A stretch of 64,000 nt of DNA from Candidatus Kerfeldbacteria bacterium. GTDB lineage: Bacteria > Patescibacteriota > Patescibacteriia > UBA9570 > XYC2-FULL-38-9. Made by a program: the position numbers and the translations under genes. Each line of letters starts with the position of its first letter. Positions within the stretch are counted from its first letter, which is position 1. Location of the stretch: contig JACPGJ010000003.1 of NCBI GenBank assembly GCA_016182555.1, forward strand, positions 10,920-74,919. Direction: 5' to 3'. Under the pieces are notes generated by a model, which was not told the origin of the DNA, did no database searches, and worked only from the letters and a program-made list of their open reading frames with translations. Below are positions 30-59,140 of this stretch, piece after piece.

Positions 30-1970
30 ATGAATCTTTCTTCAATCGAAATTTTATCCAAAATTTTCAAAAATCCCGAGGATGACCTCGCGCTTTTTAA
101 GAATTTGAATGTTTTGGAATTTTACGAGGACGAGAAAAACCGTGTGTACGTAAAAACACTCGAATACAATGGAAATGATAAAATTGTTCTTACAGAAAAA
201 AAGACAGCCCCCGAAGAAATCGTTCGGCAGTTATTCCTGTATGAACTTCTGCATGAATATCAATATCCAAAAGACAGGATAAAACTTGAGGTTGATGTAC
301 AGTTTGGTCGTGAAATTGGAAAAAAACGTGCGGACATTGTGGTTTATCGGGAAGACATGCAAACCCCATATTTGATGGTCGAAGTAAAAAAGCCTGATGT
401 AAAAGATGGGCTAGGACAATTAAAAAGTTATGCTAATGCAACAGGCGCACCAATCCTCATTCTCACTGATGGAAAACTACAAAATAACCTTTTAAGAACC
501 GATCCAAACTTATTTGAGGACTTGCCTGATCTTCCAAAGTTCAATGAAACGGTCGAAGATGTGCAAAAGAAAATTATTACTTTTGATAACCTTGAAGAGG
601 TTACAAATCTTAAACAGCTCATCCTTGATCTCGAAAATGCGGTATTGGCAAATGCTGGCGTTAATTCCTTTGAAGAAATTTTTAAACTCATTCAAACTAA
701 GCTTTATGATGAACTTGAAACTCCACGAAATCAAAATAGGCGTTTCCGTGTTATTGCAGGAGTAAGCAATAAAGAAAATTTGGATAATATCTCACGTCTT
801 TTTGCTGAATCTAAAAATCAATGGCGTGATGTTTTCAAAGATAAAGACGATATTGAAATACCAGCAAACGCTATCGTGCCAGCCGTATCGCTATTGCAAA
901 AATATCGACTTTTCGGGTCTAATCTTCAAATCATTGATGATGCTTTTGAGTACCTAATCAATCAAGATGCAAAAGGTGGGAAGGGGCAATATTTTACACC
1001 ACGCTTTGTGATTAACATGTGTGTAAAAATGCTTAATCCGAAAAAGAACGAAAATATTGTTGATACAGCTTCAGGAAGTTGCGGATTTTTGCTCCATGCA
1101 ATGCAACATGTTTGGCGAACTGAAATTACAAAAGAAAATTTCGGCAGCAGCTATGAAATGAAGCGCAAAGAATACGCGGATCAACATTTATTTGGTATCG
1201 ATTTTGACCCACGAAGCGTAAAAATCGGCAAAGCAATGATGCTTATTGCTGGCGACGGCAAAACCAATGTTACTTATGCAAATTCCTTAGACAGCGACCT
1301 TTGGGATGGAGAAGCAAAGGCAAGATTCAGTAAACTTTTACACCATTTCGACGATTTCGATTTAAACAGCAAAAATCGAGAAAAAATGACGGACTTTGAT
1401 TTTGACCTTATCATGACGAACCCGCCTTTTGCAGGTGAAGTAAAAGGGACATTGCTCAACAAATATGACCTTGGCTTTAAATTTGGTAAAGATTTTGAGC
1501 GCACAAATAAGCACCAAAACAAAATGACACGCGACATTCTGTTCATTGAGCGTAACCTAGGTTTTCTTCGCCCAGGTGGTCGCATGGCCATTGTTTTACC
1601 GCAAGGAGTATTCAACAATACCAATCAGGAGTACATCCGCCGCTATATTATGAAACAGGCACGGTTGTTGGCTGTCGTGGGTTTACATGGTAATAGTTTT
1701 AAGCCACACACAGGTACAAAAACGAGCGTACTATTTTTACAAAAATGGCGAACAGATAAAGAGCGGGAACAGGCTGGTAATTATCCAATTTTTATGGCTA
1801 CCAGCGAAAAGCCGGGAAAAAACAATAGCGGAGAATATGTATTCGCAATGGATGAAAATAATAACATCAGGAAAGATGAAAACGGGACGTATGTCTACGA
1901 TACAGATTTAGATGAAATAGCAGTCAAATTTATTGAGTTTGCAAAGAAATATAACTTTGATTTTGTTTGA
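30..1970 (+). CDS. hsdM: Type I restriction-modification N6-adenine DNA methyltransferase subunit (HsdM) with an N-terminal HsdR_N-type PD-(D/E)xK-like module
   Basis: 646-aa ORF with ATG at 30. The N-terminus carries a nuclease-fold-like stretch (KRADIVVYREDMQTPYLMVEVKKPD) typical of the HsdR_N module. The core has N6-adenine MTase motif IV NPPF (LIMTNPPFAGEV) and an AdoMet-binding-like segment (IVDTASGSCGFLLHA). Confidence 0.8.
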   Translation: MNLSSIEILSKIFKNPEDDLALFKNLNVLEFYEDEKNRVYVKTLEYNGNDKIVLTEKKTAPEEIVRQLFLYELLHEYQYPKDRIKLEVDVQFGREIGKKRADIVVYREDMQTPYLMVEVKKPDVKDGLGQLKSYANATGAPILILTDGKLQNNLLRTDPNLFEDLPDLPKFNETVEDVQKKIITFDNLEEVTNLKQLILDLENAVLANAGVNSFEEIFKLIQTKLYDELETPRNQNRRFRVIAGVSNKENLDNISRLFAESKNQWRDVFKDKDDIEIPANAIVPAVSLLQKYRLFGSNLQIIDDAFEYLINQDAKGGKGQYFTPRFVINMCVKMLNPKKNENIVDTASGSCGFLLHAMQHVWRTEITKENFGSSYEMKRKEYADQHLFGIDFDPRSVKIGKAMMLIAGDGKTNVTYANSLDSDLWDGEAKARFSKLLHHFDDFDLNSKNREKMTDFDFDLIMTNPPFAGEVKGTLLNKYDLGFKFGKDFERTNKHQNKMTRDILFIERNLGFLRPGGRMAIVLPQGVFNNTNQEYIRRYIMKQARLLAVVGLHGNSFKPHTGTKTSVLFLQKWRTDKEREQAGNYPIFMATSEKPGKNNSGEYVFAMDENNNIRKDENGTYVYDTDLDEIAVKFIEFAKKYNFDFV

Positions 1971-1971
1971 T

Positions 1972-3321
1972 ATGGCACAGATTTCTGAAATTACAGTTGA
2001 AGATTTATTGAAACATCAAAGAATTGATGCAGAATTTTTTCAACCTAAATTTTTAGATGCAGAAAGGAAAGTTGTTTCTTTTTCAAAAAAAATACAAATA
2101 AAAAAAGTCATCCACCCTAATGAGTTTAAGAGAGTATATCAAGAAAATGGGCTACAAATACTCCTTGCTCAGAATGTGAGAGATAATTGTTTAGATTTTA
2201 GCACTACTATGTTTGCAGATCCAGTGTTGAAAAATGACCTCAAACGAAACAAAGTAAATTACGATGATGTTCTCATGACAAGATCAGGTGCTAATTTTGG
2301 ACAAACGGCAGTATACAAATTTGAGAATGCTGAAATTTATGCTTGTGCGGATGTTCTCATTATTAGAAGCCAAGAAATAGCTGGTGGTTACCTTTCAACA
2401 TTTTTGAACTCTAAATATGGTAAAAGTTTAATAAACAGAGGCGTATATGGTGCAGCCCAACCACATATCGCACCATCATATTTATACTCTTTAGAAGTAC
2501 CTCAATTAAATAAAGAGTTTGAGATAAAAATAGATCAAATTACAAATGATGCTTTTTATAAACAAGAACAATCCACATCCCTCTACGCACAAGCGCAACA
2601 ACTCTTGCTTCAAGAACTTGGGCTGGATGATTTTACACCCGAATGGGTAACGGGGTACGAAATCGACCATGACAGTGTGCTTGGGGGCGCTCGTATGGAC
2701 GCGGAGTACTTTCAACCGAAGTATGAAATCGTAAAAAATAAAATTCGTGCAGTCGATCACGACACGCTAGGAAATTTAGTCAAACCGCTCAAAAAAGGTA
2801 TTGAAGTAGGTAGTGAGGCCTACGCAGAGGAAGGCATACCATTTTTACGTGTGTCAAATATTGAAAAATTCCGTATAGATAATTCAAGTGAACAATATAT
2901 TAGCAAAGAACTATACGAGGAATTGAAAGATAAGTTTTGCCCTCAAAAAAGTGAAATTTTGCTATCCAAAGACGGAACACCAGGCATTGCCTACTTTTTA
3001 ACAGAAGAAGTCAAAACGATAATTTCAGGTGGAATTGTTAGACTGAAATCGGTTGAAGTTGAACCGGAATATTTAACGCTTGTACTCAACTCTTTAATTG
3101 TTCAAACCCAAATAGAACAAGATGCAGGTGGTGCACTTATCAAACATTGGCGACCTGACCAGATCAAAACAACTCTCATTCCAATTTTGCCAAAAGAAGT
3201 GAGAGCAAAAATAGTGGCAATGGTTCAAGAAAGCTTTTCAGCACTTCACGAATCCCGCCAGCTTCTTAAACAGGCAAAGAGAGCGGTGGAGGAAATGATT
3301 GAAGCTAAAGCGTCATTTTGA
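1972..3321 (+). CDS. hsdS: Type I restriction-modification specificity subunit (HsdS)
   Basis: The ORF-track start at 1933 is a TTG. The first ATG (MAQISEI) lies 1 nt after the hsdM stop. There is an internal duplication of the conserved motif (RIDAEFFQPKFLD at the N-terminus and RMDAEYFQPKYEI mid-protein), i.e. two target-recognition halves. The size (about 450 aa) is typical of S subunits. Confidence 0.75.
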   Translation: MAQISEITVEDLLKHQRIDAEFFQPKFLDAERKVVSFSKKIQIKKVIHPNEFKRVYQENGLQILLAQNVRDNCLDFSTTMFADPVLKNDLKRNKVNYDDVLMTRSGANFGQTAVYKFENAEIYACADVLIIRSQEIAGGYLSTFLNSKYGKSLINRGVYGAAQPHIAPSYLYSLEVPQLNKEFEIKIDQITNDAFYKQEQSTSLYAQAQQLLLQELGLDDFTPEWVTGYEIDHDSVLGGARMDAEYFQPKYEIVKNKIRAVDHDTLGNLVKPLKKGIEVGSEAYAEEGIPFLRVSNIEKFRIDNSSEQYISKELYEELKDKFCPQKSEILLSKDGTPGIAYFLTEEVKTIISGGIVRLKSVEVEPEYLTLVLNSLIVQTQIEQDAGGALIKHWRPDQIKTTLIPILPKEVRAKIVAMVQESFSALHESRQLLKQAKRAVEEMIEAKASF

Positions 3322-4361: not shown

Positions 4362-4374
4362 TTTATCGGTAAAA

Positions 4375-4408
4375 GATGAGGAGGGGAATTGAGAGCTATT
4401 CAAAAGGT
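4375..4408. repeat. Partial (3'-half) copy of an intergenic structured repeat family (see 12312–12388 and 47072–47147)
   Basis: gatgaggaggggaattgagagctattcaaaaggt aligns with the 3' half of the 47-kb copy (atgaggtcgcgaggaattggctcaaaaggcc). It is located immediately 3' of the RDD gene. Confidence 0.4.
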
Positions 4409-4549
4409 AAAACCATTTTTTTCAGCGTTCTTTGAGTACTAGTGATTAGTACACACAGAAAGCTGGAGGTGGAGAGAGTACGCGATGTCGAAGCATGCGT
4501 CGTTTATATCGGCATGATCCCCGATTCTCTCCACCTCGTTGCTGTTGTC

Positions 4550-4831
4550 TCAGTTCTCTTCCTGCCGGAAGAGAACTGTCTCGCTCCTGTCGGGGTGGTA
4601 CGTGACCACCTCCAACATGGATAATTCCTCGCCCCCCCTGCTCTGGTCGAGCAGGGGGATGACGAGGTCACGGTGGTCGCCACACTTGTGGTACCACTCG
4701 TGCTCCTCAGGACCCTCCAACCAGACCGAGGTCACGGTCTGGTTGCTTTTCCAGGTCCGCACCTTGCCGGGGTGCAGAGACATGGTCTCGAAGCCCATGT
4801 CCCGCAGAGTAGAACTGAGAGAATTATTCAT
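4550..4831 (-). CDS. Hypothetical protein encoded inside a GC-rich island; the only protein-like frame in the island
   Basis: 93-aa ORF on the minus strand with a strong SD (GGAGG, 4-nt spacer, ATG). The residue composition is balanced, unlike the Ser/Trp/Arg-rich overlapping frames. I could not recognise a family. Confidence 0.35.
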   Translation of the reverse strand: MNNSLSSTLRDMGFETMSLHPGKVRTWKSNQTVTSVWLEGPEEHEWYHKCGDHRDLVIPLLDQSRGGEELSMLEVVTYHPDRSETVLFRQEEN

Positions 4832-5137
4832 GGCATCCTCCCTTTTTTATGCTAACTGGTATGCCATTACCCAGTCAGCGTTTTTGGATGTGCCGCATCC
4901 CACACTTGTGGAACACGGCGCGACGAGTAACGCAGCTGAGGCGCTTCTTTCATGAAAAAGTGAAAGTGAAATGCCCCGAATGCGTCACTCGTCAGGTATT
5001 TGTTTGAGACAACAGCTTTTCAATGTGCGTGTTCCGCTCAAACTACTTCTTTTCTACTGGTTCGGTTTTGCAGCGAACAGAACAAAATAGACTAGCATGG
5101 TTTTTACATTTTGTCAATACTTACTTCTGTCACGCCG

Positions 5138-5166
5138 TTGACTTTGTTCGGTATTCGTGATATAAA
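5138..5166 (+). promoter_or_regulatory. Sigma70-like promoter candidate upstream of the ABC ATPase gene
   Basis: TTGACT (5138–5143), 17-nt spacer, TATAAA (5161–5166), about 55 nt upstream of the ATG at 5222. Confidence 0.4.
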
Positions 5167-5221
5167 AAAAGTGAAAAAATGGAGCTAACTCCTCATTTTA
5201 ATATAAGCATTTTTGCATATC

Positions 5222-10785: not shown

Positions 10786-12302
10786 ATGGGCTTTATCGAT
10801 TCTATCGAAATCATATTAAGCGCTATATTCCGCGTCGTGTATTGAATGTCATATTGAGTGTATTCGGTGTGCATGGTTTTGCCAACGAGCAGAAGCATAT
10901 CGATCAGTCATTTGTGGTACGACAGCCATATGCATCATGCTTACGGGTGCGGAAATTTTTTTCTACGCGTAGACTCGCTCGTCAATTGCTCACTCGCGTT
11001 ACACTGATGCCAAACATATTTGTATTGATTGATGATGGAAAATTGACGTATCAAGCATTGATGCAAAAAATGGAAAACATGCATTCGGATTATGTATTGC
11101 TGGTGAATCCGAGTGATCATTTTTTTTCTGATACATTGCTGCAATATACAGCGGCAGTGTGCGAGAATCCAGATGCAAAAATAGTCTATGGTGATTATGT
11201 GGTACGTTCTGCTGGGCGTATGACTGCCGTATATTTGCCACATTTTTCTCCGTATTATTTCCAGCAGATTCGGTATATTCCGCATACAGCCCTTATTCAT
11301 ATTTCGGTGATTCGCGCTTGTCAGCGCCTTCCTCAAGCGAATGAAGAGTTTATGACAGAAGCCATTGCCCAGTGCCAAACGAAAGACGTGCTACACATAC
11401 CCGCATTCCTCACGAGCATTTCCCCAGCAGCTTATCAGTTACTGAATGCCGTACGGCCTGTGGTATACACGCTACAGTCGAACGCATTAGTCTCTATTAT
11501 TATTCCAACCAAAGATCATCCAGAATTATTACGTGCCTGTATCGAAAGCATTGCACGTTACACCAAGCAACGATATGAAATACTGATTGTGAATAATCAA
11601 TCAGAGCGCCCGGAAATGTTGAAATATTTGGCTGAATTACGAACGCAGCATACAGTGATTGATTATTCGCAACCATTTGATTATGCAGCAATGAATAATC
11701 TGGCGGCGTCACAGGCGAATGGAGCATATCTATTGTTGCTCAATGATGATATTGTGGCAACAGATGATGGTTGGCTAGAGCAAATGGTGGCGCTTGGCTC
11801 GCAGTCGAAGGTTGGAGTGGTTGGCGCTAAATTAGTATATCCCAATGGCGCTATTCAACATGCCGGATTGTGTTTGACGAGTATCAATAATGGAGTGACG
11901 TATTACTGGCATAAATATTTACGCTCTCGCCGAAAGGATGGTTCGCTTGAACCAGGATATCTTTCTTCAGTAGTGGCCGTGCGTGAAGTTGCAGCGGTAA
12001 CAGGGGCTTGTTTATTGATAAAAAAGCAACTGTTTGATGAGTTGAATGGCTTTGATTCGGAGTTGCATATTGGCTATAATGATGTCGATTTGTGTTTACG
12101 AGCACGAGAACTTGGTTATAGTGTGTTATATACGCCCTATGCAGAATTGATTCACCATGAATCGATGACTCGGAAGGCGAGTGCTCAGGTATCCATGATG
12201 CAACACCCAGAAGACAGTGCACGGTTTATTCACAAATGGAGGCATGTTCTTGAAAAAGGAGATCCGTATGTTAATTCAAAACTGAGCATTAAACAATTCT
12301 AA
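10782..12302 (+). CDS. Glycosyltransferase family 2 (two-domain)
   Basis: The C-terminal half contains VSIIIPTKDHPELLRACIESI...ILIVNNQS...LLLNDDIV and GFDSELHIGYNDVDLCLRARELGYSV (GT2). The N-terminal half is a degenerate GT-like domain. Confidence 0.75.
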   Translation: MNGLYRFYRNHIKRYIPRRVLNVILSVFGVHGFANEQKHIDQSFVVRQPYASCLRVRKFFSTRRLARQLLTRVTLMPNIFVLIDDGKLTYQALMQKMENMHSDYVLLVNPSDHFFSDTLLQYTAAVCENPDAKIVYGDYVVRSAGRMTAVYLPHFSPYYFQQIRYIPHTALIHISVIRACQRLPQANEEFMTEAIAQCQTKDVLHIPAFLTSISPAAYQLLNAVRPVVYTLQSNALVSIIIPTKDHPELLRACIESIARYTKQRYEILIVNNQSERPEMLKYLAELRTQHTVIDYSQPFDYAAMNNLAASQANGAYLLLLNDDIVATDDGWLEQMVALGSQSKVGVVGAKLVYPNGAIQHAGLCLTSINNGVTYYWHKYLRSRRKDGSLEPGYLSSVVAVREVAAVTGACLLIKKQLFDELNGFDSELHIGYNDVDLCLRARELGYSVLYTPYAELIHHESMTRKASAQVSMMQHPEDSARFIHKWRHVLEKGDPYVNSKLSIKQF

Positions 12303-12311
12303 ATCTCACTT

Positions 12312-12388
12312 GGCCGTAGCGGCAATTCTGGAGAGAGCACGTATTTGCGAAGCAAAACGAAGCTCTCGAAGAATTGGCGCGGGAGGCC
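12312..12388. repeat. Structured intergenic repeat (REP/terminator-like extended hairpin), copy A
   Basis: ggccgtagcggcaattctggagagagcac-gtatttgcgaagcaaaacga-agctctcgaagaattggcgcgggaggcc. Outer stem caattct/agaattg, inner stem gagagc/gctctc, conserved loop tttgcg.agcaaaa. Homologous to 47072–47147 with compensatory changes. Sits between convergent gene ends. Confidence 0.6.
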
Positions 12389-12392
12389 AAGT

Positions 12393-14531
12393 TTAATTTG
12401 TATATATCAATAGTGAATTGAGAACCACGCGGTCAGTGAATTCATGTGGTAGGAGTTGTAATTGCAAATTCAATTCGGTTACATTTTCTGGAATATCGAT
12501 AGCAATATTTTTCCATTCGAAAATATCTTGTAAATGAATATCTTTTGTATTCACCACAGTGCCATCCAGTAATGTCACTATCGCACGAACAATATCATTT
12601 TCCTGAACCCCTTGGCCTTGCAGCGCAATATGCAACTGATGTTGTTGTGATGTTGAAATATGGCTATAGGTAACCTGCCCACCGGTAATATTTGTAGAAG
12701 TGATTCCATCAAATGTTCGTCCGCCAATGCTGGATTGCTGTAGGACGTTATTTTTTTCAAGAGAAATCGAGGGATTCTGATATTCATAGCTTCCTAAATC
12801 ACTTGCATAGAGCAAAGTTGATTTCACCTCGCTTGTGTCTGGTTCAATCGCAACAATGATAGTTTTCTGTTCATCTGAATCATTGTTGGTATGTAATATT
12901 TCTACACGTGGTTGTTGGGAAATTTGTTCCAGCATTTTTCCCCCATTATTAGGCAATGCATCGGCATGCAGAACGACATGGGTAATACCGAGTAGTTCAA
13001 GATAATCAATGCTGGTATTATCAGGAAAATTGGAAATAACCGATTCAGAGAAATGATAATCTGGCGGAAGATATCCGCTATATCCATTGAATATCGGCTT
13101 CCAATGGCACCGAGAATTAAAAATATAGTGCACGGTTTCAAATGGATCAGCATAAAATGGGAGTTCGACTAGTGATTGTATATCTGGGTTTGTTCGTACT
13201 GCGTCATAGATAGCAGGGCATTCAACATGACTCACCACCTGGTTTGCCATATTGGTGTCATACGCATCAAAGAGAATAGAAAATGGTAGAAGCAGTGCCA
13301 CGATATATCGTACAACCGGACGTTTGATATGAATGGAGCGAATCGTATAGGCAACGACAATGGAAAGGCAGAGCAATACGATAATAGCCATGCGGCTCGG
13401 TGCACGAATAAATTGAAACGCTGGTATAGATTGAATAGCGAAAAATGGAAGAGGAATTTTTAATGTTTGATCAAATAGATGGAGCGCTGGGCCCATTGAA
13501 AGAATAATAAACAGGATAACGCCCACGCCGTAGATGGAAAATATTCTACTTTCTTTTTGTAATTTTTTTCGCTGATAGATTGCATAGATGAACAATAGTA
13601 ATGGAGCAAATCCAAGGAAGTTGATGTTTTCGAGCCAACGTTCTTTATGCAGCCCAACCCATGATACGAGATATTGGGGGTAGCTATAAGGAGAAGGGAT
13701 GAGATATCCACCAAGATCGGCGGAATAACCAATAACCTCATGAATAGAGAATGCTGAATGTTCTTGATGATTGAATTGCATGTACGCATAGGCAAATGGA
13801 CCAATCAACAGGAGAAACAGTGTGCCGGCAATGGCGATATCTATGAAGAGTGATTTACAGTGTGTTTGCAGTCGTGTTCGAATAGTTTTCATATTCGCAG
13901 CAAGTAGATAGAGTGTCAGAAATCCGAGAAACGCTCCATTATACCAGCTGGCCAGTGCTTGCGCAGCAAACAGTAAGGTAAAAATGATAAGCATTGAACG
14001 TTTCCACTGTTCTATATATTTTTGCAAACAGAGCACCGCAAAGGGAATAAAGATAATGGATAGATTTTGAAAATGATGAAAACTAATAATGCGATAGGTG
14101 GAAAATCCAAAAATAAGCCCCGCAATGAATGCCGCATATCGGTGGTGAGTATAATGAAGCGCTAAAAGGTATGCACCATATGCCGCAAGGATATAAAAAA
14201 GAAAGATGAGTATATTGTAAGTGGCAATGGTATTATGAGTGATCGCATAGATGGGGAGAGCCATGATGCTCTGCGTCAGTAATAAATCACTGTACAGAAG
14301 CACTTGGTGGTGTGGATAGAAAATATTGGCGTTGAGTAATTGTAATGGGTGAGTAGTGAGTGCGTGCATGTTCCAGCTGATGATCCAGTTGAGCAGGAGA
14401 TTATCTCTATTTAAGATACGAGAGCCAACATGAGATAATAGTGGATAACAAAAAAAAGTTGCTACAAGGCTATAAAGGAAAATCACAACCAAATGATGAC
14501 CATGTCGGAATTTTCCTTTGAGATGATGCAT
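12393..14531 (-). CDS. Large polytopic membrane protein, GT-C-like (ArnT/PMT/YfhO-type) putative lipid-linked-sugar glycosyltransferase with a C-terminal extracytoplasmic domain
   Basis: 712 aa. The N-terminal roughly 450 aa have many predicted TM helices and the C-terminal about 250 aa are soluble. It is the last gene of the operon UXS, GT2, this gene; its ATG abuts the stop of the GT2 gene. Confidence 0.5.
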   Translation of the reverse strand: MHHLKGKFRHGHHLVVIFLYSLVATFFCYPLLSHVGSRILNRDNLLLNWIISWNMHALTTHPLQLLNANIFYPHHQVLLYSDLLLTQSIMALPIYAITHNTIATYNILIFLFYILAAYGAYLLALHYTHHRYAAFIAGLIFGFSTYRIISFHHFQNLSIIFIPFAVLCLQKYIEQWKRSMLIIFTLLFAAQALASWYNGAFLGFLTLYLLAANMKTIRTRLQTHCKSLFIDIAIAGTLFLLLIGPFAYAYMQFNHQEHSAFSIHEVIGYSADLGGYLIPSPYSYPQYLVSWVGLHKERWLENINFLGFAPLLLFIYAIYQRKKLQKESRIFSIYGVGVILFIILSMGPALHLFDQTLKIPLPFFAIQSIPAFQFIRAPSRMAIIVLLCLSIVVAYTIRSIHIKRPVVRYIVALLLPFSILFDAYDTNMANQVVSHVECPAIYDAVRTNPDIQSLVELPFYADPFETVHYIFNSRCHWKPIFNGYSGYLPPDYHFSESVISNFPDNTSIDYLELLGITHVVLHADALPNNGGKMLEQISQQPRVEILHTNNDSDEQKTIIVAIEPDTSEVKSTLLYASDLGSYEYQNPSISLEKNNVLQQSSIGGRTFDGITSTNITGGQVTYSHISTSQQHQLHIALQGQGVQENDIVRAIVTLLDGTVVNTKDIHLQDIFEWKNIAIDIPENVTELNLQLQLLPHEFTDRVVLNSLLIYTN

Positions 14532-18930: not shown

Positions 18931-20250
18931 ATGAATAAGAAACATATCGGCATTATTGGGGGCGGATTAACAGGGATGACCGCGGCATTGGAACTGTTAA
19001 AAGATGGCCATGACATTACGATTATTGAAGGTGGATCGCAAACCGGCGGGCTTGCAGCCGGGTTTACATTTGAAGGTGCCAGCTTAGAACATGCTTACCA
19101 CCATGCCTTCAAAACCGATTATGATATTTTGGATTTGATTCAAGAATTAGAATTGAAGGACCAATTGAATTGGTTTGATAGCTCGATGGGTGTGTATTAC
19201 AACGGCCAATTATATCCCTTCCGCACTCCGATCGATTTACTGAAATTTCCGCCATTACGTTTTTGGAGTAAATTTCGTTTAGGCCTAACCGTATTGTATT
19301 TACAACACACAAAAAATTGGAAACGTTTTGAACACGTCACGGCAGCCGAATGGATGCGCAAGCATTGTGGTAAGCAAGCGTATGAAGTTATTTGGAAGCC
19401 GTTATTGCATGGCAAATTTCACCAATATGCTGACCAGGTATCTATGGCTTGGTTATGGGCCCGTATTCACATTCGCGCTAATTCAAAAGAAAAAGGGGAT
19501 TCGCGCGAGAAATTGGGGTATATGACGGGTGGGTTTCATACACTCATTCATGCATTGGAAGAGCGCTTACGCAAAGAAGGCGTGCAGATTCATTTGAATG
19601 AAAAAGTGCGCGGCGTGCGTACCGCAGAACAGGGCACGGTACAGGTAGAAACAGAACAGAAAACGTACACATTTGATGAAGTCATTTCGACGGTTTCTAC
19701 TCATCTTTTTTCACAAATGCTTGATTCAAAAGACACGACGTTAGCGAACTATAAAAAACAATTGGCGAGCGTGCAGTATTTAGGCGCAGCATTAGTCATT
19801 TTTTCTTCGGAACAATCGTTGAGCCCGTATTATTGGGTGAATGTGAATGATTCGGCTTCACCATTCTTAGCGTTCATTCAACATACGAATTTAGCACCGA
19901 CGAGTTGGTACAATAATCGGCAGGTGTATTATCTGGCGACATACGTTCCCCATGGTCATCGTTTTTTTACCACCGACGAAGCTGCACTGAAAGAAGAATT
20001 TTTTACCTATCTCAAAAAAATATTTCCTCAATTTTCCCCAGAACAAATACACAACACTCAGGTGATGCGTTTGCGGTATGCGCAACATATCGTGGATACG
20101 AACTACGCAGAAAAAATGCCGGCGCATGTTACGCCGATTCCGCACGTGTACCTTGCTAATTTTTCCCAAATTTTTCCAGAAGATCGCGGCATGAGTTATG
20201 CGATTCGCGAAGGTCGCAAGCAGGCGCAATTATTACGTGAACGATTATGA
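18931..20250 (+). CDS. FAD/NAD(P)-binding oxidoreductase (amine-oxidase / Glf-like Rossmann flavoenzyme family)
   Basis: N-terminal dinucleotide-binding GxGxxG (IGIIGGGLTGMTAALELL) followed by a conserved acidic residue (IIEGG). 439 aa. Sits in an operon between GtrA and GT-C genes. Confidence 0.6.
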   Translation: MNKKHIGIIGGGLTGMTAALELLKDGHDITIIEGGSQTGGLAAGFTFEGASLEHAYHHAFKTDYDILDLIQELELKDQLNWFDSSMGVYYNGQLYPFRTPIDLLKFPPLRFWSKFRLGLTVLYLQHTKNWKRFEHVTAAEWMRKHCGKQAYEVIWKPLLHGKFHQYADQVSMAWLWARIHIRANSKEKGDSREKLGYMTGGFHTLIHALEERLRKEGVQIHLNEKVRGVRTAEQGTVQVETEQKTYTFDEVISTVSTHLFSQMLDSKDTTLANYKKQLASVQYLGAALVIFSSEQSLSPYYWVNVNDSASPFLAFIQHTNLAPTSWYNNRQVYYLATYVPHGHRFFTTDEAALKEEFFTYLKKIFPQFSPEQIHNTQVMRLRYAQHIVDTNYAEKMPAHVTPIPHVYLANFSQIFPEDRGMSYAIREGRKQAQLLRERL

Positions 20251-21887
20251 ATTTTCGTAAGCGATTACAACAACAATCTGTTTATTGGTATGGAGCGATG
20301 GCAGTGATGGTGCTATTTGCCGTTTTTCAATTGGCCACTATCAATCAGTACGGAGTGAGTTGGGACGAAAAAGATGAGCATCTGCTCGCAAACGCGTTGA
20401 TGCAATATATAGAAACGGGGAATGTGAGTGAAATTACGTTAACCGGATATCCTGATTTACGACATTATGGTTCCTCAACGCCATTTTTGATGATGTTGTG
20501 TTCTGTGGTTTCGCGTCAATTTCTCGGGTTGAATGTGGCGAGTGCGAATCATCTGTATATTGTGTTGTTGGGTGTCGTGACTCTCGTGGCAACATATTTG
20601 TGGAGCCGGCGTGTATTTGGAAAAAGAGTCGCATTATGGAGTATTCTTTTTTTGGCGTTATTTCCGCAATTTATTGCTCATGCTCAGTATAACCCTAAAG
20701 ATATTCCCCAAACAGCATATATTGCACTGACGTATTATTTTTTCTATCGGTGCTACCATGATCGAAAATTCATTTTTGCACTACTGGCTGGCGTGGTTTA
20801 TGGTATTGCCTTGTCTACCGTGGTTTCAGTCTTGATTGCGCTACCTATATTTTTTGGCAGCTACGTGCTTTTTATTCTTTTTCAAGACCCCGTTTATCGT
20901 CGTGCTGATTGGAAGCAGTACCTTGGAAAAGACGCCGTATTATTTTTGGTATTTGCTGCCACTGCAGCGCTTACGATGTATGCCACCTGGCCACTCATGT
21001 GGACAGAACCGACTATTTTTATGGACGCCGTGCGCCTGTTTCAACACCATGATTGGAATGGCACGGTGTTGTACTTAGGGACTGTCTCTTATGCCGCTGA
21101 GTTGCCCTGGCATTATGCGCCGTTGTATCTCTTTATTGTTACGCCGCTGTCTACAATCATTTTTTTTGTGTTTGGGCTAGTGTATGCCGGCAAGCAGGTC
21201 TTCAAGCGGGTGCATCTTTCTGCAGCTCACCAAGAAATGACGGGCACAGTGACTGTTCATTTAACCGCGGTATTTCGCTATGGGTCTTTACTATTGTGGG
21301 CGTTGATACCATTGGCGGTGTTTATGTTACCTGGTGCAGTGAATTATGATGGCATTCGACATTTTTTTATGGCTATTCCACCACTCATGATTCTTGCTGG
21401 TATTGGATTACATGCGGTTATTGAGCGTCTCGCCAGTTTGTCTGTGCCGTACAAACGCGTGCTACCTATTGCCATTATTTGCGTGTTTTTATTTTCAATT
21501 GGTGCACAAATTGTACAAATTCATCCGTATGAAGGATCGTATATGAATGAAATTGTTCGTACCGTGATCCCTAAGCACGTTGAAGATTTTTTTGAAGTAG
21601 AGTATTGGGGACCATCCTACCGCGAAGGAGTTAAGTGGCTGAATGCCAATGCTTCACAGAAATCTCGTGTTTGCATCCCGTTTGCGCCACATCTTATTGA
21701 TGCCTACCATACACGCAAAGATCTGTCTTTTGGTTGTGACCAGCCATATAGTTATGTGATGTATTTTACGCGTGGAGGAAAGCGTAATACGCCACAGGAA
21801 TTAACAGATCATGTTGATCAAGCACGACTCGTGTATACCATTTCACGCCAAGGTGCAGATTATTTATATATTTATGAAACGAAGTAA
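20247..21887 (+). CDS. GT-C-fold membrane glycosyltransferase (ArnT/PMT-like), paralog 1
   Basis: 546 aa, polytopic. First periplasmic loop carries the Asp-Glu motif (VSWDEKDE). About half the residues are identical to the downstream gene over FPQFIAHAQYNPKDIPQ...NGTVLYLG. Confidence 0.65.
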   Translation: MNFRKRLQQQSVYWYGAMAVMVLFAVFQLATINQYGVSWDEKDEHLLANALMQYIETGNVSEITLTGYPDLRHYGSSTPFLMMLCSVVSRQFLGLNVASANHLYIVLLGVVTLVATYLWSRRVFGKRVALWSILFLALFPQFIAHAQYNPKDIPQTAYIALTYYFFYRCYHDRKFIFALLAGVVYGIALSTVVSVLIALPIFFGSYVLFILFQDPVYRRADWKQYLGKDAVLFLVFAATAALTMYATWPLMWTEPTIFMDAVRLFQHHDWNGTVLYLGTVSYAAELPWHYAPLYLFIVTPLSTIIFFVFGLVYAGKQVFKRVHLSAAHQEMTGTVTVHLTAVFRYGSLLLWALIPLAVFMLPGAVNYDGIRHFFMAIPPLMILAGIGLHAVIERLASLSVPYKRVLPIAIICVFLFSIGAQIVQIHPYEGSYMNEIVRTVIPKHVEDFFEVEYWGPSYREGVKWLNANASQKSRVCIPFAPHLIDAYHTRKDLSFGCDQPYSYVMYFTRGGKRNTPQELTDHVDQARLVYTISRQGADYLYIYETK

Positions 21888-23457
21888 GTTGTTGAATTTT
21901 TCCACAGCTGCTTATTTGCTGATTGTACTTTTTTTTATCGTGAATGTGGTGACGTTGAAGCAGTATGGCATGACATACGATGAACGGAATTATGCCATGA
22001 TCGGCCAGATGAATGTGGAATATTTTCATACGCTGGATCGTTCACAAATTCACCCGTTAGATGATCTGATGATTTATTATGGACCAGCGTATCACATTGT
22101 TCAACAAGTGTTTGGTTTATTTGCGCAGGCGGTGTTTCATTTAGGGTATATTGATGCCACACATCTTTTTTTGGTATGTACTTCTACCGCCATGTTATTG
22201 GTGGTTTTTTTCTTTGCTCGGTCATTATTCCGCCCATCGGTTGGTTTGTGTACGGTTGTCTTGCTCATGCTGTTTCCACACTTTATTGCCCACGCCCATT
22301 ATAACCCGAAAGATTTACCCGAAGCCGAGATGGTGACCATTAGTTTGTATCTTTTTTATCGGCTCTATAGCACAAAGCGATATGTGTACGCTATTTTAGC
22401 CGGTGCGGTTTACGGTTTTGGTTTAGCCACAGTCGTGAGCATTCTTTTAGCCGTGCCAATATTTGTTGCGAGTTATCTATCTTTTTTGGTTTTTCAAGAA
22501 CGAATATATCAACGCAAAGATTGGAGGGTATATTTATTAAAAGATGTATTATTATTTTTTGTATTTGCTATCGTGCTCATGTTCACAATGGTTTTGAGTT
22601 GGCCACTGTTATGGAGCGATCCACACATATTTGTAGAATCTATTCGCTTGTTTCGTCACCATAGTTGGAATGGGCAGGTTTTATATTTTGGCCAAACCTA
22701 TCTTGGTTCTGAAATTCCGTGGCATTATGTGCTGCTATCTCTATTTATGGCTACTCCACTGTTACCATTTTGCTTTTTTATTGTTGGTCTGGTTCGGTCT
22801 GGAAAACAGATACTCCATCGGAAGGAAATGTTTCCATATGCGTTCATACTGTGTTGGGCCGCTCTGCCATTGATCATATTTATGTTGCCTGGTGCTGTGA
22901 ATTATGATGGAATACGACATTTTTTTATGGCTATTCCACCATTGATGATTCTCGCTGGTGTGGGGATGGATGCGGTGATACGCGGGTTAAAAAATATATT
23001 ACACACTCGACCCGTGCTTCTTCCAACTATTTTTTGTATAATCGTCGTCGGTTGGTTGGTTAATGAATCACGCCAAGTACACCCGTATGAAGGTGCCTAT
23101 TTTAATGAATTGGTGCGTCTCATCATTCCTGCACATATCGAAACTGTGTTTGAAGTGGAATATTGGGGCGCATCTTACCGAGAAGGTGTTGACTGGTTGA
23201 ATACACATGCCGCACCAAATGCGGTGGTCTGTGTGCCTGATGGTATGCATATGGTTGAAATGTATCCACGCCGTCTAGATATTCTCTTGCATTGTGGTGA
23301 TGACTCTACGTATGTCATGTATTATACGCGTGGTGGTCCAAGAAAAATTCCTGCGCCTATGTTATTGAACCAACAATCAACGCAGCGTGTCTACACTATC
23401 AGCCGGCAACATTCGGATTATCTGTATATTGTTTCTATTTCATCAGTATCGCAGTAA
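21874..23457 (+). CDS. GT-C-fold membrane glycosyltransferase (ArnT/PMT-like), tandem paralog 2
   Basis: The start MKRSKLLNF at 21874 overlaps the upstream stop by 14 nt; the ORF-track 5' extension from 21811 is rejected. FPHFIAHAHYNPKDLPE...NGQVLYFG is collinear with paralog 1. The loop has a DE motif (MTYDERN). Confidence 0.65.
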   Translation: MKRSKLLNFSTAAYLLIVLFFIVNVVTLKQYGMTYDERNYAMIGQMNVEYFHTLDRSQIHPLDDLMIYYGPAYHIVQQVFGLFAQAVFHLGYIDATHLFLVCTSTAMLLVVFFFARSLFRPSVGLCTVVLLMLFPHFIAHAHYNPKDLPEAEMVTISLYLFYRLYSTKRYVYAILAGAVYGFGLATVVSILLAVPIFVASYLSFLVFQERIYQRKDWRVYLLKDVLLFFVFAIVLMFTMVLSWPLLWSDPHIFVESIRLFRHHSWNGQVLYFGQTYLGSEIPWHYVLLSLFMATPLLPFCFFIVGLVRSGKQILHRKEMFPYAFILCWAALPLIIFMLPGAVNYDGIRHFFMAIPPLMILAGVGMDAVIRGLKNILHTRPVLLPTIFCIIVVGWLVNESRQVHPYEGAYFNELVRLIIPAHIETVFEVEYWGASYREGVDWLNTHAAPNAVVCVPDGMHMVEMYPRRLDILLHCGDDSTYVMYYTRGGPRKIPAPMLLNQQSTQRVYTISRQHSDYLYIVSISSVSQ

Positions 23458-45255: not shown

Positions 45256-46905
45256 ATGAAACATCCAAAGTATATTTTTGTTGTTGGTGGAGTCATGTCT
45301 TCTGTCGGCAAAGGCGTGGTAACTTCTTCGCTGGGAATGATTTTGCAATCACGAGGCTTTCATGTGACGGCAATGAAATTTGATCCGTACATCAATGTGG
45401 ATGCCGGAACCATGAATCCGACGGAACATGGAGAAGTGTTTGTGACTGAAGATGGAGATGAAACAGACCAAGACATTGGCAATTATGAACGTTTTTTGGA
45501 TGAAGATATTTATTCAGTCAATTACATGACCAACGGTCGTATTTGGTTGGAAGTGATTAATAAAGAGCGAAATTTAGAGTATAAAGGAAAGTGTGTTGAA
45601 GTCGGGTATCATATTCCGCAGGAAATTATCCGTCGTATCAAGTTGGCGCAACAAAAAAGTAGATCAGATATTATGGTGATTGAGGTAGGGGGAACCATTG
45701 GGGAATATCAAAATATTCTTTTTTTAGAAGCAGCACGAATGATGAAGTTAGAGAATCCGGGCGATGTCTTATTTGTATTAGTGAGTTACCTGCCTATTCC
45801 GTCAAAAGTGGGTGAAATGAAAACGAAGCCGACGCAACATGCGGTTCGCCAGATGAATGAAGTTGGTTTACAGCCAAATGTTATTATTGGCCGTGCAGAA
45901 AAACCACTGGATACGGTTCGCAAAAAGAAATTGGCACAATTTTGTAATATTGACGATGCGCATATTATTTCTGCACCGGATGTTGAACATATTTATGCTG
46001 TGCCGCTCATGTTTGAGCAACAGGAGTTGAGTACAAAAATATTGAAAGAATTGCATTTGCGCCCACGCACGGCTTCTGCGCAGAGTCCGCGTATGATTCA
46101 GTGGAAAAAACTTGTAAAAAATATTCAACAATCAACAGAGCCGGTACGCATTGCGGTGGTCGGCAAGTATTTTCATACGGGTGAATATGTCTTAGCGGAT
46201 TCCTATATTTCTGTGATTGAAGCATTGAAACATGCCGCTTGGCAGTGTAAACGGAAAGCAGAGTTAGTGTGGTTAGACCCGGAAGAATATGAACAAGATC
46301 CGAAACGGGTGAAGGAATTAGCCGATTTTGATGGCGTCCTTATTCCCGGCGGATTTGGTTCGCGCGGGGTAGAAGGGAAAATTCAAGCCATTCAATATGT
46401 TCGGGAACACCACATTCCGTATTTTGGTTTATGTTATGGCATGCAGTTGGCGGCAATAGAAGTAGCGCGGCATGTGGTTGGGTTGCGTGGTGCCCATACG
46501 GTAGAAATTGATGAAGCACCAGAGCATCCAATTATTGTTGTGAACCCGCACCAACAGAAAAATATTTTGCAAAAGCACTATGGCGGCACCATGCGTTTAG
46601 GAAGCTACGATTGTGAAGTGATGAGTGGCACCAAAGCCGCCGTTGCTTATAAACAACCGATGGTGAAGGAACGCCATCGTCACCGTTATGAGTTTAATAA
46701 TGACTATGTTCAACGTTTGCATGATGCTGGCTTGATCGTTTCCGGCCGTAATCCACAGCAAGATTTGGTGGAAATTATGGAATTAAAAGGACACCCATGG
46801 TTCTTGGGTACACAATTCCATCCAGAATTTCTCTCTCGTCCTCTTCATCCACACCCCTTATTCCTCGGTTTTATTAAAGCTGCTATTGCCCGTAATAAAA
46901 AATAG
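45256..46905 (+). CDS. pyrG: CTP synthase
   Basis: MKHPKYIFVVGGVMSSVGKGVVTSSLG at the N-terminus. C-terminal glutamine amidotransferase with GLCYGMQ. The start is at the MKHPKY ATG (track start 45229 rejected). Confidence 0.9.
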   Translation: MKHPKYIFVVGGVMSSVGKGVVTSSLGMILQSRGFHVTAMKFDPYINVDAGTMNPTEHGEVFVTEDGDETDQDIGNYERFLDEDIYSVNYMTNGRIWLEVINKERNLEYKGKCVEVGYHIPQEIIRRIKLAQQKSRSDIMVIEVGGTIGEYQNILFLEAARMMKLENPGDVLFVLVSYLPIPSKVGEMKTKPTQHAVRQMNEVGLQPNVIIGRAEKPLDTVRKKKLAQFCNIDDAHIISAPDVEHIYAVPLMFEQQELSTKILKELHLRPRTASAQSPRMIQWKKLVKNIQQSTEPVRIAVVGKYFHTGEYVLADSYISVIEALKHAAWQCKRKAELVWLDPEEYEQDPKRVKELADFDGVLIPGGFGSRGVEGKIQAIQYVREHHIPYFGLCYGMQLAAIEVARHVVGLRGAHTVEIDEAPEHPIIVVNPHQQKNILQKHYGGTMRLGSYDCEVMSGTKAAVAYKQPMVKERHRHRYEFNNDYVQRLHDAGLIVSGRNPQQDLVEIMELKGHPWFLGTQFHPEFLSRPLHPHPLFLGFIKAAIARNKK

Positions 46906-47186
46906 AATTGCCTTGCCAGACTGCCTAACAATGACCGTCGATCGCGACTCCTGCGGTCGCTCTCTCCTCATTCCTCGGCTCGCTCCTCGAATCGCAAGCG
47001 ATTCTCGACCAAGCTCGCTGCCAGCTCCGTCACTGTACGGCAGCTGGCAATGGCAAAGAAAATTCAAAAAAGGCCGTAGAGGCAATTCCACAGCGACCAT
47101 CTTTTTGCGTAGCAAAATGAGGTCGCGAGGAATTGGCTCAAAAGGCCTTCGAGGAATTGTCGCTTAAGGGTTTTTTGTAATCAGAA
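46906..47186. repeat. Composite GC-rich intergenic repeat cluster: extended-hairpin element copy B (core 47072–47147), inverted degenerate copies and a 12-bp-stem hairpin (47019–47049)
   Basis: Core ggccgtagaggcaattccacagcgacc-atctttttgcgtagcaaaatga-ggtcgcgaggaattggctcaaaaggcc is homologous to 12312–12388. The upstream segment ...ctcctcattcctcggctcgctcctcgaatcgc is an inverted degenerate copy. The hairpin is tgccagctccgt-cactgt-acggcagctggca. The cluster lies between the convergent 3' ends of pyrG and rpmA. Confidence 0.6.
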
Positions 47187-47468
47187 TTATTTTCCGGAGA
47201 CGACAGAGACAATTTTTGCTTTTTCGAGTTTGCCGGTAAAGCGTTTTATTTTGCGTTCAGTGAATTGTACAACGCCATCGACTAATGCAAAAATAGTGTT
47301 ATCTTTGCCCATTTTTGTTCCATCACCTGGGCGGAATTTTGTACCACGTTGACGAATAAGAATGTTTCCGACAGTGACCTTCTCTCCGCCAAATTTTTTT
47401 ACGCCCAGTCGTTTCGATTGTGAGTCTCGTCCATACGCGGTGGACCCACCAGCTTTGGTATGTGCCAT
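47187..47468 (-). CDS. rpmA: 50S ribosomal protein L27
   Basis: [31 protein letters not shown]...[10 protein letters not shown]. 93 aa. Confidence 0.9.
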
Positions 47469-47681
47469 ACAATAATAGTAATAGTATAAGAAATGATAAA
47501 AATCTTCTAGACTTTTTCGTAGAAATAGTATATATTCTCCTTAAATTATTGTCAATACTTACATTAGCAAGTAATGATATGACCAGAAACATGTTGTACA
47601 TTTTTCTGTAGATGAGGTATCTTATATCATAAGAACGTTCGGGAGGAGTTTTTGCTGTTCCTGAACACGGTAATTATTAAC

Positions 47682-48749
47682 ATGAATCGTATGAACAAAC
47701 GATCGTTGTTCACCACAATTAGCGCAGGACTGTTGACCTTTGCGCTGCTGGTGCTTCCACACAACAGTTTTGCTTTGACCGCAGAACTGGTCAGCATTAC
47801 TCCGGAACCACAACAGGACATTTCTGACATGATGACTGGTGCGCCAGATGGAGTTTCGGTATTTGCATGGCTAACAGAAACAGATACGGAATACACAGCC
47901 GTTTTTTCTGTTGATGAAGAGCCGGCAGTGATCATTACTCCCGGCGGAGATATTGCTCCGGATAATCGCTGGAGCTATGATGAAGAGGGCGGAACAGTGA
48001 CCGTACCGTTTACAGCAACAGGATTAAAACAAACGAGTGATGGACCAGACAACGCCGCTATTGTTGCGCTTGTTGCAGCTGTTGAACCAGGAGAAGATGG
48101 CCCTCCGGAAGAAATGACCGGCTGTTGGTTGTCGACCAATGTGCAGGATTGGGAATTAATTCCTCCGTCAGAAGATAATGTTGCGTTTGGGTTTTCATTA
48201 ACTGGCCCGGAAGGGGAAACCGGTTTTTTCCACATGTTTATGCCTGATTCAATGGTGGATTTCATGAGTGAAATGAGCGGGGAAGAGTTAACCGTAGAAG
48301 ATTTAGCGGTGTTTAATGGAGACAATCAGTCTTCCATGAGCATTACTCCAGTAGACGGCGGCGCCATGATTGATATTAATGTGAAATTTCTTTCCACAGC
48401 AATCAGTGCAACATCAGAAGATGACGATGGCAGCATCACAAAAGAGATTACGGTTCGCGAGCAGCTGCCTATTAGTTTGGCGGCCAATAAAACAGAGTTG
48501 AAAAACGGCAAACAGGCTCAACTCTTTGGTTGGCTTAAAAACGGGAAGAAGAATAAGCGTGTTGAAATTTGGCGAAAAAAAGATGGAGAATCAGCATTTA
48601 CCAAATGGAAAAACGTTAGAACAAAAAAGAACGGAAAATTTACTCATACATTCATTCCGAGAAACACCGCCATCTATAAAGTGAAATATCGTTCTGATGG
48701 TTCCACGATGACGAGCGAAAATCAGACCATCACTGTGGAGAATGCATAA
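47682..48749 (+). CDS. Hypothetical secreted protein (signal peptide)
   Basis: MNRMNKRSLFTTISAGLLTFALLVLPHNSFA is signal-peptide-like. The mature protein is acidic and Thr/Glu-rich. The start among the 47652/47682/47691 ATGs is uncertain. Confidence 0.5.
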   Translation: MNRMNKRSLFTTISAGLLTFALLVLPHNSFALTAELVSITPEPQQDISDMMTGAPDGVSVFAWLTETDTEYTAVFSVDEEPAVIITPGGDIAPDNRWSYDEEGGTVTVPFTATGLKQTSDGPDNAAIVALVAAVEPGEDGPPEEMTGCWLSTNVQDWELIPPSEDNVAFGFSLTGPEGETGFFHMFMPDSMVDFMSEMSGEELTVEDLAVFNGDNQSSMSITPVDGGAMIDINVKFLSTAISATSEDDDGSITKEITVREQLPISLAANKTELKNGKQAQLFGWLKNGKKNKRVEIWRKKDGESAFTKWKNVRTKKNGKFTHTFIPRNTAIYKVKYRSDGSTMTSENQTITVENA

Positions 48750-59037: not shown

Positions 59038-59140
59038 AAAATGGTAACGCTGTAAATAATAGCATAGCAATGATGGCAATAATGCTAATGAAAATCCATG
59101 CTTTCTCTTGCCATCGTTTTTTCTTCTTTTTTGACATAGT

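Follow-up and report, generated by a model that had tools for sequence, protein, structure and literature searches.

Two long hairpins between convergent genes

The window, that is, the whole 64,000-nt stretch of a Candidatus Kerfeldbacteria contig analyzed here, carries two copies, A and B, of a long imperfect palindrome (Table 1). Copy B lies in the interval that had been flagged, 46906-47186. This interval is 281 nt long and makes up the whole spacer from the end of pyrG at 46905 (+ strand, CTP synthase) to rpmA, the − strand gene of ribosomal protein L27 at 47187-47468, which has its stop codon at 47187. Copy A lies 35 kb away in a 90-nt spacer between the gene of a family-2 glycosyltransferase (+ strand, stop codon at 12300-12302) and that of a 712-aa DUF6311 membrane protein (− strand, stop codon at 12393-12395). 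The gene calls at the 12-kb and 47-kb loci agree with the initial annotation that both full copies sit between convergent genes. The element is therefore extragenic and flanked by convergent ORFs, which is the location of REP sequences. In A, the hairpin with its flank pairing ACTT/AAGT (12308-12392) occupies all but 5 nt of the spacer, and only 5-9 nt on one side and 0-4 nt on the other separate it from the stop codons; in B, the hairpin with its flank pairing AA/TT spans 47070-47149. The two spacers differ from the rest of the window in composition and stability, with a GC content of 0.52-0.53 vs. 0.27-0.49 in the other spacers, the lowest minimum free energy per nucleotide of all window spacers, and folds that lie about 5 sd under the window mean in 90-nt sliding folds.

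Table 1. Coordinates of the element, of features next to it, and of the corresponding junctions in related loci (positions for L037 and L047 are those of the related locus).
Feature	Position	Strand	Length	Remarks
Copy A, core element, GGCC...GGCC	12312-12388	+	77 nt	covariance-model score 103.6 bits
Copy B, core element	47072-47147	+	76 nt	covariance-model score 95.5 bits
GTAG tag of A	12316-12319	+		GTA unpaired, outer GGCC clamp on one side and main stem on the other
GTAG tag of B	47076-47079	+		position and pairing state as in A
Apex GCGAAGC of A	12347-12353	+		d(GCGNAGC) motif, + strand only
Apex GCGTAGC of B	47107-47113	+		d(GCGNAGC) motif, N differs from A
T-rich tail TTTTTTGAATTTTCTTTGC	47053-47071	−		directly after the B hairpin on the rpmA transcript, intrinsic-terminator-like
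U-rich stretch GTTTAATTTG...	12393-12404	+		after the A hairpin, 5 T in 8, weaker terminator-like tail
Tandem partial duplicate of the B 3' arm	47150-47171	+		CGAGGAATTGtcgcttAAGGgt, compared with CGAGGAATTGgctcaaAAGGcc at 47126-47147
Separate GC-rich (~55%) multi-hairpin palindrome upstream of B	46908-47056	.		46908-46926 pairs with 47038-47056
pyrG/rpmA spacer in L037	11669-11711		43 nt	bidirectional terminator AAAAACACCGTG-gtca-TCACGGTGTTTTG, nothing else
pyrG/rpmA spacer in L047	3969-4077		109 nt	AAAAACTGTGC-cat-GCACAGTTTTT
pyrG/rpmA junction in L036				rpmA inverted
pyrG/rpmA junction in L048				three genes inserted between pyrG and rpmA

The alignment of the two copies that had been proposed was reproduced, with 58 of 77 columns identical and both copies on the + strand. 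The pattern GGCAATTC-N30-50-GAATTGGC occurs twice in the window vs. 0 expected. A covariance model built from the A and B pair only, and run over the 64 kb with filters off, scored 104 bits for A and 96 bits for B, against 11 bits for the match ranked third. The similarity between the loci is limited to the element itself, and A and B are of common origin.

The element had been described as a family of at least 2.5 copies. The two full copies stand, while in the approximately 67 kb of the source genome that were covered a third copy is unsupported. For the supposed 3'-half copy at 4375-4408, the covariance model returned nothing at E<10 and local alignment nothing significant; the inverted degenerate copies reported in 46906-47071 align no better than shuffled sequences. 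A hairpin at 47019-47049 is indeed present (−23.5 kcal/mol, z = −3.6); it is contained in the separate palindrome upstream of B, which is not a homolog of A and B, occurs only once in the window, and is without a match in Rfam, plasmids or phages. The sole additional fragment of the family is the 22-nt tandem duplicate of the B 3' arm, in which 16 of 22 positions match and CGAGGAATTG is exact (2-3 of 500 shuffles score equally); TTTTTT comes next, at 47171-47176. Exact-protein look-ups led to Logan contigs of SRR12113419 and SRR12113422, which extend the window by about 2.8 kb; these extensions hold no further copies, nor do the contig ends carry partial ones.

Copy A is spanned in the NCBI metagenome-assembled genome and copy B by a Logan contig of SRR12113419 (L001). 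In SRR12113422, two Logan contigs (L035 and L038) abut without overlap at the apex of A (12349|12350), a break that suggests a coverage or assembly effect of a very stable hairpin.

Several other features of the window deserve mention. The interval 4362-5221 is an 860-nt stretch without a gene in the Logan gene calls, the core of which (4500-4800) has 54-62% GC vs. 41% for the genome. No other 90-nt fold in the window is as stable as the one at 4631-4720 (−50.8 kcal/mol) in this core. The stretch also has an inverted repeat of 15 nt (4466-4480/4525-4538) and, on the − strand at 4550-4831, the 93-aa ORF HYV32_00740, which has a strong Shine-Dalgarno sequence and no Pfam match. Homologs of HYV32_00740 were not found among 5.8 billion proteins, and the interval has no Rfam match; it could represent either a small piece of inserted foreign DNA or a structured RNA not yet recognized as such. 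Two genes of PMT_2-family (dolichyl-phosphate-mannose-type) glycosyltransferases, 20247-21887 and 21811-23457, are adjacent tandem paralogs with 71-77% DNA identity (21273-21657/22831-23215), in blocks of about 150 nt that lie 1558 nt apart. At 30-3321, an N6-adenine methyltransferase/Eco57I-like gene is followed by a gene with a weak match to a type I specificity domain, and a LexA-like gene is located just upstream of the window (in L035); together these form a restriction-modification module beside the glycosylation locus.

Fold, compensatory changes and transcript ends

A and B form the same structure, a single long hairpin of 28 bp in five helices, in agreement with the common shape that had been described for them. 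From the outside inward, a GGCC/GGCC clamp leads into a 3 × 4 internal loop with GTA and a GNG/CNC helix. A conserved G-G mismatch, a CAATTCY/RGAATTG helix and a 3 × 2 internal loop make up the middle of the structure, and the inner part consists of a variable 6-bp helix and an apical TTTGC-GNA-GCAAA hairpin. The irregularities kept in A and B are the unpaired GTA, the G-G mismatch, and the C-G-closed GNA triloop. A reading of the GTA bulge as a K-turn was rejected on inspection, since the G-A/A-G positions are unconserved and the adjoining helix covaries as Watson-Crick.

The RNA minimum free energies of the + strand are −39.3 kcal/mol for A and −40.7 kcal/mol for B (z = −6.1 and −8.4, respectively), and none of 200 shuffles folds as well as either copy. 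With DNA parameters the + strand reaches −30.2 kcal/mol in A and −28.6 kcal/mol in B (z of about −8). The − strand also folds, about 5 kcal/mol more weakly in both copies with RNA or DNA parameters.

The compensatory changes that had been reported are confirmed, in that four base pairs are altered on both sides with pairing kept, and one pair is broken. Three of the compensated pairs are seen directly on the MAFFT alignment (9-68 C:G/A:T, 18-59 T:A/C:G, and 23-55 A:T/C:G), and the fourth (26-52 G:C/C:G) becomes visible once the single MAFFT gap in B is shifted by one column. Paired cells amount to 98%, compared to 31-46% when the partners are slid by 1-3 columns. An alignment-shuffle control gave 57/500; with two sequences and three pairs the value cannot fall lower, which makes this control uninformative, and a substitution simulation was used instead. 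When 19 random substitutions, equal to the number of differences between A and B, were placed on copy A in 200,000 trials, at least four compensated pairs arose in 0.2% of trials (p = 0.002) and at most one broken pair in 0.002% (2e-5), and both conditions together were obtained in 0 of 200,000. Pairing of the outer stem also runs on into flanks that are not homologous, as ACTT...AAGT in A and AA...TT in B. Taken together, the compensated pairs and the pairing into unrelated flanks indicate that the hairpin is maintained, and not the sequence alone. Complementary stem changes of this kind distinguish sub-families of REPs, and four such pairs separate A from B; covariation between two sequences fits selection at the RNA level or the DNA level alike.

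Both copies are placed at gene 3' ends. In transcripts of rpmA, UUUUUUGAAUUUUCUUU, a U-tract on the − strand (CTTTTTTGAA), comes immediately after the B hairpin, and on the glycosyltransferase transcript, A is followed on the + strand by GUUUAAUUUG, a weaker U-tract. The opposite strands (+ for B, − for A) lack a convincing U-tract. Other 3' ends in the window have ordinary short terminators of a hairpin and a T-tract, such as that at 59069-59118. The long hairpin would form on transcripts from either strand and could thus act as a terminator of the flanking genes or protect the 3' ends of their transcripts, with rpmA, where a T-tract comes after the B hairpin, as the clearest candidate for termination. 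Judged from these features, a role of the element in terminating or stabilizing transcripts is plausible.

Related genomes and sequence collections

The CTP synthase of the window is 100% identical to a protein encoded on an 86-kb NCBI contig of a Candidatus Kerfeldbacteria metagenome-assembled genome, and two other window genes have locus tags with the prefix HYV32. After this protein, the best CTP synthase homologs available reach 74-76% identity. The L9-pyrG-L27(-pil operon) neighborhood is kept in four related loci (L036, L037, L047 and L048). The spacers of L037 and L047 carry the textbook form of a bidirectional intrinsic terminator, with an A-tract, an 8-bp GC stem and a T-tract, which indicates that canonical terminators are in use in this Kerfeldbacteria-like lineage. 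At the other junction, the closest DUF6311 ortholog (52% identity; L049 and L050) has a 35-nt 3' spacer and then a convergent metK gene, without the element. A covariance-model search of about 150 kb of related loci gave no match. From spacer length, the element would be an insertion, a conclusion that has to be read with the distance of the compared relatives in mind (74-76% and 52% protein identity). It thus appears to be extra DNA relative to all available relatives, placed where these carry a plain terminator.

The surroundings of copy B have changed in other ways as well. Downstream of copy B, in the gap that separates rpmA from the genes for type IV pili, an ORF of 365 aa (47652-48749) has a hydrophobic segment at its N-terminus and matches no Pfam family; L036, L037 and L047 do not have it at the corresponding position. 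All relatives examined show a rearranged pyrG-rpmA-pil junction, which looks like a local insertion hotspot.

Wider collections gave the same picture. Rfam returned no match at gathering scores or at E<=10, the best hits having E>=1 and lying far under gathering. In GTDB representative genomes, the pattern GTAGNGGCAATTC-N30-50-GAATTGGC gave 29 single matches in unrelated phyla, with about 23 expected, and none of them has the apex or the fold. A stem-apex-stem pattern found two chance matches in JGI metagenomes, one coding and one overlapping a tmRNA-like 3' end. In IMG/VR, the 5' arm has eight matches, the best two of which are in homologous coding sequence, and the apex plus 3' arm has none; blastn with the whole spacer found no match in plasmids and phages. 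The search of related genomes that the initial annotation had proposed thus found no similar copies in the relatives, the GTDB representatives or the JGI metagenomes. Absence from the relatives and from the collections scanned points to a lineage-specific element.

A REP-like reading and its alternatives

A homologous 77-nt hairpin at two unlinked loci, which relatives lack, argues for a copying process at the DNA level. The reading preferred here, to which a probability of roughly 0.55 is assigned, is that A and B are members of a dispersed, REP-like family of GC-rich imperfect palindromes of about 77-85 nt that now supply a terminator or 3'-end hairpin. The element would have been copied as DNA into spacers between convergent genes, where relatives have a short terminator or almost no spacer, and would persist there because insertion is harmless. 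The REP branch is favored by the unpaired GTA 5' of the main stem, the complementary changes, the conserved mismatch, and the position between convergent ORFs. The earlier comparison to REP/BIME elements holds to this extent; the head-to-head or tail-to-tail pairs of BIMEs are absent, as both copies are single units.

Selection may instead have acted on an RNA, with A and B as two paralogous, non-mobile copies of a 3'-UTR binding or processing signal or of a small RNA gene. The compensated pairs would be expected of such an RNA, as would the single G-U wobble, which occurs only on the + strand of B, the conserved internal loops and triloop, the greater stability of the + strand, and the shared orientation of the copies. 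However, an RNA of this kind should have been conserved in the orthologous spacers and in the approximately 150 kb of syntenic relatives, from which the element is absent, and the few nucleotides between copy A and its neighboring stop codons leave no room for a promoter. Both observations speak against a vertically inherited RNA. Rfam has no match even at permissive thresholds, and it is as DNA, not as RNA, that the apex motif has notable stability. This explanation is considered unlikely.

A miniature inverted-repeat element (MITE) derived from a DDE-type insertion sequence would explain why the arms, GGCCGTAGNGGCAATTC/GAATTGGCNC....GGCC, are inverted repeats, why GGCC bounds both copies, why the element is GC-rich compared to host spacers, and why it is missing from the spacers of relatives. 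On this view the arms would serve as the terminal inverted repeats, and GGCC might be a target duplication of fixed sequence. GGCC is the only flanking repeat at A and B, and being palindromic, it may be a part of the element or a duplication; neither a non-palindromic direct duplication nor a parent insertion sequence is found in the window. MITEs need matching termini only, and 77 nt is at their extreme short end. The interior of the element, however, keeps its pairing as well as the termini do, with a compensated variable inner stem and pairing that enters the flanks, and it is this that makes derivation from a DDE-type element quite improbable.

It could also be supposed that A and B are ordinary intrinsic terminators of unusual length which owe their similarity to a single local duplication or gene conversion, without forming a family or being mobile. 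In favor of this, no more than two copies are known, both occupy expected terminator sites and have T-rich tails, and a terminator is also present at the pyrG/rpmA junction of relatives. The loci are nevertheless 35 kb apart with nothing in common outside the element, their 25% divergence with compensation implies long independent maintenance, and five-helix hairpins of 28 bp with conserved mismatches far exceed what termination needs. Little probability is therefore left to this account. Finally, A and B could be hairpin-forming sites of site-specific recombination, of the integron attC type or another. Such sites would also be imperfect hairpins 3' of ORFs with conserved extrahelical bases and with stems that vary in sequence at a conserved structure, but an attC-type site is to be excluded because the RYYYAAC...GTTRRRY core pair is absent at A and B, and the window contains neither an integrase nor a cassette array.

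If the REP-like reading is followed further, the element would spread as a single-stranded DNA hairpin, served in trans by a Y1/HUH (RAYT- or IS200-like) enzyme, as suggested by the presence of both the GTAG tag and the GCGNAGC apex on the + strand. GC skew is usually read as marking the G-rich strand as the lagging-strand template. The + strand is G-rich across the window, and by this reading it would be the lagging-strand template. Y1/HUH transposases act on the lagging-strand template (PMC6006769). GTAG is the hallmark of the GTAG-REP superfamily (PMC3733652), and the mini-hairpin formed by GCGNAGC is, whatever the base N, exceptionally stable as DNA and markedly less so as RNA (PMC13037366). 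With two copies and a motif that is not rare (GCGNAGC occurs 12 times on the + strand and 4 times on the − strand of the window vs. 7-10 expected), the tag, apex and strand features are hints only. The same orientation of A and B has a chance expectation of 50%, and GGCC is under-represented (104 vs. about 131-141 expected) only so mildly that no inference is drawn from its avoidance. No gene for a Y1/HUH, RAYT or other transposase was found in the window or its flanks (about 67 kb), and an unambiguous target-site duplication was found at neither A nor B.

The boldest form of the proposal is that these copies represent the first REP-type family of Patescibacteria (candidate phyla radiation), a long GTAG palindrome with a GCGNAGC apex that nucleates folding on the lagging template, which was mobilized by a Y1/HUH enzyme and displaced ancestral short bidirectional terminators; taken as a whole, this is speculative and rather unlikely. 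To our knowledge, dispersed structured repeats are hardly documented in Patescibacteria, the genomes of which are small and gene-dense. A limited literature search found no description of REP or MITE families in the group, and novelty is accordingly unproven. If a REP-like family is truly present, streamlined genomes tolerate or exploit selfish palindromic DNA, and the family would mark sites of genome plasticity such as the pyrG-rpmA junction and be an example from nature of a mobile hairpin that has assumed the role of a terminator. Such hairpins also break short-read assemblies and could serve as strain markers. With two copies in hand, the finding is modest and descriptive.

Among known systems, the element is a new repeat family of an already known REP/stem-loop type, REP membership proper not being established. 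GTAG-tagged REPs are extragenic and mostly located between convergent or unidirectional ORFs, and their sub-families differ by complementary stem changes, some having self-complementary "loops" (PMC3733652). Like these REPs (including SMAGs, with RAYT/TnpA-REP Y1 enzymes), the element is an extragenic imperfect palindrome downstream of ORFs, preferably convergent ones, is GC-rich compared to its surroundings, has a GTAG, some bases of which are unpaired, on the 5' side of its main stem, and combines complementary stem changes with conserved stem mismatches. It departs from them in size: REPs are 20-40 nt with stems of 6-13 bp, while the element, at 77 nt, 28 bp and five helices, is 2-3 times the length of classical REPs. 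Counted by itself, the main stem that follows the tag has 10 bp and the G-G mismatch, and the remainder can be read as a self-complementary "loop", such as some REP families have within. Its GTAG lies inside the outer GGCC (+2-4 bp) clamp and not terminally as in REPs, and the conservation of the tag in two copies may simply be inherited. REPs number tens to hundreds per genome, often as BIMEs, and typically flank a RAYT gene, compared to two single copies in the same orientation and no RAYT gene in about 67 kb of window and flanks. The host, too, belongs to Patescibacteria, a lineage for which the limited literature searched describes no REPs.

Other stem-loop families (Correia/NEMIS, RUP, ERIC, and TIR families adjacent to TIRYT genes) resemble the element in being dispersed, intergenic, and able to form long hairpins on transcripts; they overlap it in size and often supply terminators or processing sites. 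The element has no sequence similarity to any known family in Rfam or in the collection scans, and neither a target duplication nor a parent element was found for it. From MITE-like repeats it is set apart by pairing constraint on its interior, not on the termini alone. Its apex, with N being A or T, is shared with the d(GCGNAGC) mini-hairpins at single-strand initiation sites and N4 promoters; the known cases are origin and promoter signals of phage and plasmid single-stranded DNA, and elsewhere in the window the motif is found about as often as chance predicts. Canonical bidirectional terminators, finally, are also hairpins flanked by an A-tract and/or a T-tract, are also located between convergent genes, and in L037 and L047 occupy the very same pyrG/rpmA junction. 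They are nevertheless 7-12 bp long and non-homologous between loci, whereas the element has a T-tract on one side only and is a homologous 77-nt, five-helix hairpin at two loci.
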